The notes beneath the pieces were generated by a model that was not told the origin of the DNA, ran no database searches, and saw only the letters and a list, made by a program, of their open reading frames with translations. A program made the position numbers and the translations under genes. Of a DNA stretch of 64,000 bases, positions 10,565 through 11,224 are shown in pieces. This DNA is from Escherichia coli. GTDB taxonomy: Bacteria; Pseudomonadota; Gammaproteobacteria; Enterobacterales; Enterobacteriaceae. Position 1 is the stretch's first letter. Every line of letters begins with the position of its first letter. The stretch lies in NCBI RefSeq assembly GCF_030384885.1, contig NZ_CP128613.1. The stretch is one strand, 5' to 3'.

Positions 10565-10873
10565 ATGGATTCTTATGGGATTTTATCTGCTCTGGCAGAA
10601 CGAACGATTACAGCGGAAGAAGCAAAAACAATGACACTTGCAGCCAGAAGTTCTTCGGCTCAGGTAAATGAAGCATCACTTGCTCTGTTACTGATTGATA
10701 ATACTCTGGATGCGATCAAAGCAGCTGCCAGTGAAGGGAAAGGATACACTTTACTTCCTTCTTATGAGATTTCTGTAAAAGCCATTGATTTAGCAGAAGA
10801 ATTTTTAAGGAAACAATGCGGCTATGTTATTGATAACCAGAATGGCGTAAGGACGGTCTATTGGTTTATATGA
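10565..10873 (+). CDS. Hypothetical phage accessory protein (102 aa), copy 2
   Basis: ORF duplicated exactly in copy 1; no Ff counterpart. Confidence 0.5.
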   Translation: MDSYGILSALAERTITAEEAKTMTLAARSSSAQVNEASLALLLIDNTLDAIKAAASEGKGYTLLPSYEISVKAIDLAEEFLRKQCGYVIDNQNGVRTVYWFI

Positions 10874-10990
10874 TAACCCCGGACAATGACAAAACTTGCT
10901 TTTGTTAGTGTCAGGGGTTGGCCAAGCCGAACAATTCTGTTTTTTTAGCGTTATTGCTGATTCGGCGCGGCAGCATTACGAGGAGATAAA

Positions 10991-11224
10991 ATGCAATTTT
11001 TCACATCCAGCGATACTGTAATGTTATGTGCGAAGACCTGCGATCGCTGTGGTCGCCATGCGAAGACGGTGGTAGATGACATTGAGTTCAATGAGTTTCT
11101 GTCTGTTAATCACTTAGCTGGATACGGTTCAATTTTTGGTGACAGTAATCGCTTAAAACTGGATTTATGCCAACATTGCCTGAAAGACGTCCTGGGCCAG
11201 TGGATTACGGTCTGTGACCAATGA
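10991..11224 (+). CDS. Hypothetical Cys-rich zinc-ribbon-like phage accessory protein (77 aa), copy 2
   Basis: GAGGAG RBS; CxxC...CxxC; duplicated exactly in copy 1. Confidence 0.55.
   Translation: MQFFTSSDTVMLCAKTCDRCGRHAKTVVDDIEFNEFLSVNHLAGYGSIFGDSNRLKLDLCQHCLKDVLGQWITVCDQ

Follow-up and report, generated by a model that had tools for sequence, protein, structure and literature searches.

What are two small genes doing at the very end of an inovirus genome, beside the site at which the phage joins the chromosome, and do they belong to its own machinery? The two open reading frames (ORFs) concerned, ORF102 and ORF77, lie in a stretch of Escherichia coli DNA of 64,000 nucleotides (contig NZ_CP128613.1; hereafter the window), where a prophage of the CUS-1/YpfPhi type is integrated in tandem at dif. 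Both are found between the end of the secretin gene, the equivalent of gene IV, and dif (Table 1). What the ORFs at the ends of the phage do has been named as an open question, since the phage gives Yersinia pestis and E. coli K1 a modest in vivo advantage (PMC4266046). Comparison with related elements firmly supports the conclusion that ORF102 and ORF77 are cargo, not core or integration genes. Our best explanation, to which as a whole we give an even chance, is that they are independently acquired and expressed passengers of the moron type, and that ORF77 acts in the interplay of toxin–antitoxin systems and defence.

That the ORFs are real is established, and the pattern of substitution indicates genes under purifying selection. 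The ratio of non-synonymous to synonymous substitution rates (dN/dS) is 0.14 when ORF102 is compared with its Salmonella homologue (61% identity) and 0.06 when ORF77 is compared with a homologue on a plasmid (71% identity); in the remaining comparisons synonymous sites were saturated. A preliminary description of the locus had placed ORFs of 102 and 77 amino acids (aa) between gene IV and attP, preserved exactly in both prophage copies. The coordinates were confirmed, and self-comparison of the window shows positions 1–2701 to be identical, base for base, to 8576–11276 (period 8575); the window starts inside one 8,575-bp copy of the element, and a second, complete copy follows. Both ribosome-binding sites had been called good. 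That of ORF77 is strong (GAGGAG, 5 nt before the ATG) and that of ORF102 is weaker (GGGG, ∼ 7 nt before the ATG). A promoter and terminator scan returned no promoter for either gene. ORF102 matches phrog_4115 over its full length (E = 2e-68) and ORF77 matches phrog_5435 in the same way (E = 4.5e-46). Since both families are annotated as of unknown function, membership names the proteins without explaining them. Scans of Pfam, NCBIfam and PADLOC with both proteins and their divergent homologues gave nothing above cut-off, and the Pfam families without a significant match to either ORF include those of inoviruses. The earlier statement that neither ORF has a counterpart in Ff is supported. A literature search on the protein accessions, the PHROG identifiers and DUF4926 turned up nothing of use. 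The two ORFs were also compared with each other, and a relationship was rejected.

The observation of the pair is correct but already known, because two ORFs adjacent to attR are on record (PMC4266046). In that account YPO2280a and YPO2281 of Y. pestis, which have homologues in CUS-1, are immediately adjacent to attR, have no predictable functions and occupy the position of ctxAB in CTXphi (PMC4266046). ORF102 and ORF77 correspond to them by position. As in CUS-1 and YpfPhi, two small ORFs absent from CTXphi and Ff separate the secretion gene from attR/dif in a tandem, dif-integrated inovirus, and proteins annotated in CUS-1-type prophages such as that of E. coli UM146 are identical to ORF102 and ORF77. 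As far as the comparison reached, it showed no difference from the published pair.

The case for cargo rests on what lies between the two genes and on how their places are filled in relatives. ORF102 and ORF77 are separated by two hairpins, together spanning 10874–10971 and repeated in copy 1 at 2299–2396, and all the related inoviruses that were examined have this double hairpin. Its covariation was tested on 10 sequence variants collected from relatives. In hairpin 1, 96.8% of helix cells are paired and five pairs show compensatory changes; in hairpin 2 three pairs do so, and the stems of the Salmonella and L031 types are fully different with pairing kept. Taken together, the hairpins have standard pairs in 93% of pair cells, compared with 30–50% when the partners are slid, and eight pairs with compensatory double changes; the observed values were reached in 0 of 500 shuffles. 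The two-hairpin region folds with z = -3.9. Because pairing and compensatory changes exceed those of slid partners and shuffles, we regard the double hairpin, on comparative grounds, as a conserved cis-acting structure. By analogy with the intergenic region of Ff, it may serve as a packaging signal or complementary-strand origin. Rfam gave only spurious matches to microRNA hairpins.

On either side of this structure is a slot, and the contents of the slots differ from element to element. In the window, slot 1 (before the hairpins) holds ORF102 and slot 2 (after them) ORF77. A Salmonella prophage (L002/L003) has an ORF102 homologue in slot 1 and ∼ 300 nt of non-coding DNA, with no ORF77, in slot 2. 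Slot 1 is empty in inoviruses L031/L032 and a Klebsiella plasmid segment (L081), where slot 2 holds an ORF77 homologue with an extra tail, and is likewise empty in Klebsiella L033/L087, where slot 2 holds an ORF77 homologue. The dif prophage of UTI89 (L084 10244–10886) carries an unrelated 82-aa ORF in slot 1 and an unrelated 65-aa ORF in slot 2. All five share the attP-proximal sequence. Because slot contents vary among relatives that have this sequence in common, ORF102 and ORF77 are best described, from the comparison of these elements, as separable and exchangeable cargo in two slots flanking the double hairpin. The two-slot architecture around a conserved double hairpin is newly added here.

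Table 1. Features of the prophage terminus and its repeat in the window (pI, isoelectric point).
Feature	Position	Strand	Remarks
ORF102, cargo slot 1	10565..10873	+	102 aa, ATG; WP_000378924.1; phrog_4115; pI 4.7
ORF77, cargo slot 2	10991..11224	+	77 aa, ATG; WP_001159442.1; phrog_5435; pI 5.4
ORF102, identical copy in first tandem prophage	1990..2298	+	exact repeat
ORF77, identical copy in first tandem prophage	2416..2649	+	exact repeat
Conserved hairpin 1, 19-pair stem	10874..10920	+	compensatory changes
Conserved hairpin 2, ∼ 10-pair stem, T-rich loop	10921..10971	+	compensatory changes
Long near-perfect hairpin over gene IV stop codon, 61 nt	10485..10545 (copy 1: 1910-1970)	+	inverted repeat I1
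attP region, copy-copy junction	2688..2780	+	site 1 2688-2719, GC hairpin 2721-2752, inverted site 2 2759-2780
Gene IV equivalent (secretin), upstream boundary	9137..10495	+	UM146 annotation: secretin N-terminal domain-containing protein
Reconstituted chromosomal dif (attR), GGTGCGCATAATGTATATTATGTTAAAT	11263..11290	+	28-bp dif sequence matched exactly

Some further features of this region were recorded. The structural module of the UTI89 prophage differs, with the same hairpins between its slots; its 82-aa ORF is Arg-rich, its 65-aa ORF starts MTHQELKVMLLKDPAFRAAYEAE, and neither has a Pfam match. In the Salmonella and L031/Klebsiella relatives a segment of ∼ 300 nt between slot 2 and attP is conserved (L002 10430–10730, L031 5300–5600). 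It is absent from the window, contains no conserved reading frame and has no Rfam match. The longer hairpin over the stop codon of gene IV folds as DNA with -24.8 kcal/mol (z = -9.2) and lacks a T-run; the terminator scan found nothing there, and a terminator and a signal in single-strand DNA are both conceivable roles. In L033 the secretin gene is likewise followed by a hairpin, analogous though different.

The position of the ORFs beside the integration site had led the preliminary description to suggest a part in integration or in excision directionality. On that reading they would be accessory factors that modulate XerCD at attP/dif, in the manner of recombination directionality factors or of XafT. 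The TLCphi satellite, which integrates at dif, encodes XafT as its own activator of XerD, and the resemblance is that of a small protein of a dif-integrating element encoded near attP. The ORFs are indeed immediately beside attP, the stop codon of ORF77 falling 39 nt before the XerC arm; ORF102 is restricted to a dif-integrating lineage and has a weak winged-helix-like prediction, a fold that some excisionases share. The attachment site itself, however, belongs to a type that argues against such a factor. The copy–copy junction is an imperfect dif, and single-stranded attP folds into a forked hairpin with a bulged centre (5-nt bulge; -33.5 kcal/mol, z = -8.4), which makes it CTXphi type, not TLC type. 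Inverted XerC/XerD sites are described for YpfPhi, to which the CTXphi arrangement is also ascribed, and the CTXphi mode relies on host XerCD, with help from EndoIII and without a phage protein (PMC4266046). Moreover, sister phages that share this attP do without one of the genes, ORF77 (L002) or ORF102 (L031, L033/L087), or without both (UTI89), and most homologues of ORF77 have no dif/Xer context, being found in tailed-phage contigs, on Rep3 and IncF plasmids and in TniQ transposon cargo. No similarity of the ORFs to DUF3653 or to any helix–turn–helix (HTH) family was found, and no Pfam or NCBIfam match to XafT/DUF3653, to Xis or other excisionases or to recombinases was seen, for XafT/DUF3653 and excisionases even at E up to 10. 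Slot variability, the distribution of ORF77, the CTX-type attP and the lack of a family match together leave the idea little room. A role in integration or excision for either ORF is unsupported, and we consider it extremely improbable. Host interaction, also proposed at the outset, stays a reasonable class of function.

ORF77 offers more to work with. It has two CxxC pairs, C17xxC20 and C60xxC63, as had been pointed out, and across an alignment of 101 family members C60, C63 and D51 are invariant and C17, D18, C20, E32, E35, G44, S47, G50, D58 and Q61 are at least 90% conserved. The family consensus reads CDRCG...ExQEF...GYGSVFGDG...DLCQHCxK..LG; in P0018, a close homologue, position 17 is Ser. 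In the AlphaFold2 (AF2) model, whose predicted local distance difference test score (pLDDT) is 90.3, the second CxxC opens a helix (residues 61–71). Because this pair sits at the N-terminus of a helix and not in a β-hairpin, the predicted fold is a treble-clef zinc finger and not a classical two-knuckle zinc ribbon; the protein had first been called zinc-ribbon-like. ORF77 very probably binds zinc, with C17, C20, C60 and C63 as the predicted ligands. No zinc-ribbon family of Pfam reaches cut-off for ORF77, profile searches of PDB sequences gave no significant match, and Foldseek found none among viral structures at E <= 1e-3. An HNH or His-Me finger nuclease was rejected, as the family has no conserved catalytic His and does not show the pattern of such a His closing β1 with a metal-binding Asn or His in the helix. 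The gyrase inhibitor YacG, which shares a C-x3-[DV]-L-G-x-W spacing, was rejected on an hhalign probability of 0.2%, obtained with a YacG sequence entered by hand.

A profile search of 1.84 billion representatives gave 1,236 proteins at E <= 1e-3, each of them the representative of a cluster at 50% identity, and 613 at E <= 1e-10. All 101 aligned relatives match phrog_5435 and none is covered by a Pfam family. The ORF77 family is therefore large and absent from Pfam and NCBIfam, and its placement is newly added here. ORF77 itself occurs unchanged in more than 1,000 Enterobacterales contigs. Its relatives are found in tailed-phage contigs, among small accessory genes near terminases, homing endonucleases and DNA methylases (the latter at 4 of 37 loci), on small Rep3 and large IncF plasmids, and beside genes for TniQ, GNAT, SNase and Xre-MbcA proteins in Betaproteobacteria and other phyla. 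No conserved neighbour emerged from 62 loci (37 viral, 25 genomic). One contig that encodes ORF77 at 100% identity is binned as 'Candidatus Nanosynbacter' (JARKOR010000214.1, our L085) and is most likely an enterobacterial contig in the wrong bin.

Members of the family differ in length. Among 146 newly retrieved members, 95 have at most 120 aa and 51 are longer. The extensions include Xre_MbcA_ParS_C in 8 of the 51, DUF4926 in two and TacA1 in one; by eye, further tails are MbcA-type, VapB-like (DDFDxPL) or ParD-like, with a recurrent FDPxRHGGEFP linker. The tail of the L031 homologue is CcdA-like, with a sub-threshold Pfam CcdA match (E = 0.0086) to the correct region of the profile. No recognisable toxin was seen beside fused relatives in the six contexts examined. 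A toxin of the CcdB type was looked for after the L031 homologue with its tail and was not found; a conserved non-coding segment with broken frames lies there. The ORF77 domain is thus a recurrent head on antitoxin-like and apparently toxin-less proteins of mobile elements. ORF77 is this head alone: it ends 14 residues past C63 and lacks a toxin-neutralising C-terminal module, tails being confined to relatives. ORF102 has no match to a toxin family, and the two ORFs do not always occur together, so there is no adjacent cognate toxin on that side either.

The arrangement recalls the modular type II antitoxins (MbcA/ParS/Xre, TacA, CcdA, VapB), as the ORF77 domain is fused ahead of toxin-binding modules. 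MqsA is an antitoxin whose N-terminal domain binds zinc, and in the fusions the ORF77 domain would have the same place and property. ORF77 differs from these systems, however, in having neither a toxin-binding tail nor an adjacent toxin, and the fused relatives examined have no recognisable toxin as a neighbour; nor is it related in sequence to the zinc finger of MqsA/YgiT or to HTH or ribbon–helix–helix (RHH) heads. On another reading ORF77 is the decaying remnant of a toxin–antitoxin pair, an antitoxin from which the CcdA-like tail and the partner toxin have gone and which has no present function; in its favour, the 64%-identical homologue in inovirus L031 and on a Klebsiella plasmid retains the tail. 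We find this very improbable. Purifying selection on ORF77 is strong (see its dN/dS above), the protein is identical in the many Enterobacterales contigs already mentioned, short forms make up the majority of newly retrieved members, and the tailed form likewise has no toxin gene beside it.

The opposite end of the phage is a cargo site as well: the genes at the attL end differ among the window, the Salmonella episome, UM146, UTI89 and the published phages. In the window this end encodes, at 2786–3715 (-), a 309-aa protein with AbiJ_NTD4 and DUF7014 (STM4504/CBY_0614 family in the NCBI nomenclature), a likely abortive-infection-type defence gene; it is cargo unlike that of either CUS-1 or YpfPhi. 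E. coli plasmids, too, often carry the AbiJ-like segment. In relatives its position is taken by a Doc-family toxin (Salmonella episome L111, 2138–2872) or a zinc-binding protein of the ECs_2282 family (UM146).

We infer zinc binding, a target for ORF77 and any defence-related function, and picture their connection as follows. ORF102 and ORF77 stand outside the replication, assembly and integration machinery. ORF77 would be a cytoplasmic protein of 77 aa in which a single zinc is held by C17/C20, in a β-hairpin knuckle, and C60/C63, at the start of the C-terminal helix. The treble clef would present the nearly invariant acidic, glycine-rich loop GYGSxFGDG, together with D18, E32, E35, D58 and Q61, and the loop might bind a conserved target of the cell or of a mobile element. 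In the lysogen, ORF77 may then counter defences or modulate a toxin; that it is a small regulator which binds nucleic acid is less likely. We favour toxin–antitoxin or defence interplay because ORF77 is small and acidic, is conserved across very different hosts and lies in accessory regions, and because toxin-binding modules to which its domain is fused have no toxins and defence or toxin cargo is found at the phage's other end. A more specific version seems to us unlikely. In it, ORF77 is the stand-alone form of a new and widespread zinc-finger domain of mobile elements, a promiscuous module of orphan antitoxin-like proteins, which phages, plasmids and this inovirus would use to neutralize or rewire toxin–antitoxin-type or other host defences through the invariant acidic loop GYGSxFGDG.

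Several points weigh against an expressed passenger with a part in defence. No member of either ORF family has an experimental or annotated function. The neighbourhood evidence is anecdotal (4 of 37 viral loci have a DNA methylase nearby and two lineages a GNAT next to the gene), and inspection covered the best 150 of the 1,236 family members. The correspondence with Y. pestis rests on the published account (99% identity over 7.1 kb; PMC4266046) and not on direct sequence comparison. The N-terminal position in antitoxins is classically the DNA-binding one, which favours a regulator over counter-defence. The C-terminal two thirds of ORF102 are predicted to be α/β and winged-helix-like, albeit in a weak model (pLDDT 72.6, three sequences).

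The main rival explanation is that ORF77 is a sequence-specific nucleic-acid-binding regulator, the DNA-binding head of an antitoxin on its own, with ORF102 as a winged-helix co-regulator. Both proteins are acidic, however, and the conserved residues of ORF77 are mostly acidic and invariant across phyla, unlike residues that recognize operators. One of the fusions already has a full antitoxin region of the TacA family (Pfam TacA1), and the fold matches are all weak. We consider such a regulator rather unlikely; the remnant, virulence-cargo and integration-factor readings are less likely still. The relatives of ORF102 amount to ∼ 10 proteins in 5.8 billion clusters, all from inovirus prophages of Enterobacteriaceae or fragments of these, and two attempts to find remote homologues yielded only the same ∼ 10 proteins. 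Conservation is strong in the C-terminal two thirds and not in the N-terminal third. ORF102 is thus a separate, lineage-restricted acidic protein, possibly with a winged-helix-like domain, and the likeliest guess is that it acts as an adaptor or regulator.

The place of the ORFs in the genome, between the assembly and secretion module and a hairpin-forming attP used by host XerCD, is that of the accessory genes ctxAB in CTXphi. It may be asked, then, whether they are virulence or host-fitness cargo that acts on an animal host as a functional equivalent of ctxAB, all the more as the element is present in extraintestinal E. coli such as UM146 and as YpfPhi and CUS-1 confer a modest fitness advantage in vivo (PMC4266046). 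But the product of ctxAB is an AB5 toxin that is secreted and separately regulated, whereas the ORF proteins are small, acidic and predicted to be cytoplasmic: by inspection neither sequence has a visible signal peptide or membrane segment, and Pfam and NCBIfam detect no toxin-like or effector-like domain. The ORF77 family is also widespread in environmental phages and in bacteria not known as pathogens. This explanation is in our view quite improbable.

The published question can now be narrowed. The right-end ORFs are interchangeable cargo, the ORF77 family is linked to antitoxins by its fusions, and the other end holds AbiJ-like or Doc-like genes; taken together, these results point to phenotypes of toxin–antitoxin systems and phage defence. 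A role of ORF77 in such interplay is our best guess and unproven. Should ORF77 prove to have such a role, a function would be assigned to more than 1,000 protein clusters in phages and plasmids.

The element as a whole is an inovirus of the CUS-1/YpfPhi type, integrated at dif of E. coli, and is already described. It shows the inovirus gene order (replication protein G2P, single-strand DNA-binding protein, coat proteins, Zot and secretin), and the DNA that flanks it matches E. coli chromosomes. The annotated start of the UM146 secretin corresponds to position 9230 of the window, and Pfam Secretin and Secretin_N match the orthologue in Salmonella. Positions 10496–11290 (795 bp) are 100% identical in prophages associated with dif in E. 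coli UM146 and in dozens more complete genomes; at least 80% of this interval is covered in 48 of 5,426 genomes, many of them with two copies. Both ORFs are also carried by a circular 7,938-bp Salmonella episome (L111), labelled a 'plasmid', which evidently represents the replicative form. The INPHARED phage collection, searched at both the nucleotide and the protein level, contained no match. Work by Gonzalez in 2002 and Derbise in 2007 is reportedly cited for YPO2280a/YPO2281 and their CUS-1 homologues. Integration at dif and tandem copies are likewise described for YpfPhi (PMC4266046).

A number of minor observations concern the prophage and its surroundings. E. coli EC5502 (NZ_CP092647.1; match H18) has 16 separate matches to the ORF102–ORF77 region, which suggests a very long tandem prophage array. 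In some deleted prophage remnants at dif, gene II is cut short and its 5' part continues in frame into the 3' end of ORF77 or of ORF102 (L112, Logan ERR10016988; P0024, P0005), and one such fusion represents 70 member sequences; it is because of these chimeras that G2P fragments and ORF102 are merged in one 90% cluster. In the gene III-like attachment protein, six tandem 15-nt repeats (7136–7255) encode a linker rich in Gly, Ser and Glu. On the chromosomal side of dif, a variable island (11296–17082) precedes the yde fimbrial operon. It contains a 146-aa ORF without a Pfam match, a 64-aa remnant of an MbcA/ParS/Xre antitoxin C-domain (11878–12072, -), a leucine-rich-repeat (LRR) protein annotated in E. 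coli as an NEL-type E3 ubiquitin ligase (12992–14425, -; 60-bp tandem repeats at 13111–13770) and an ankyrin-repeat protein (15118–17082).

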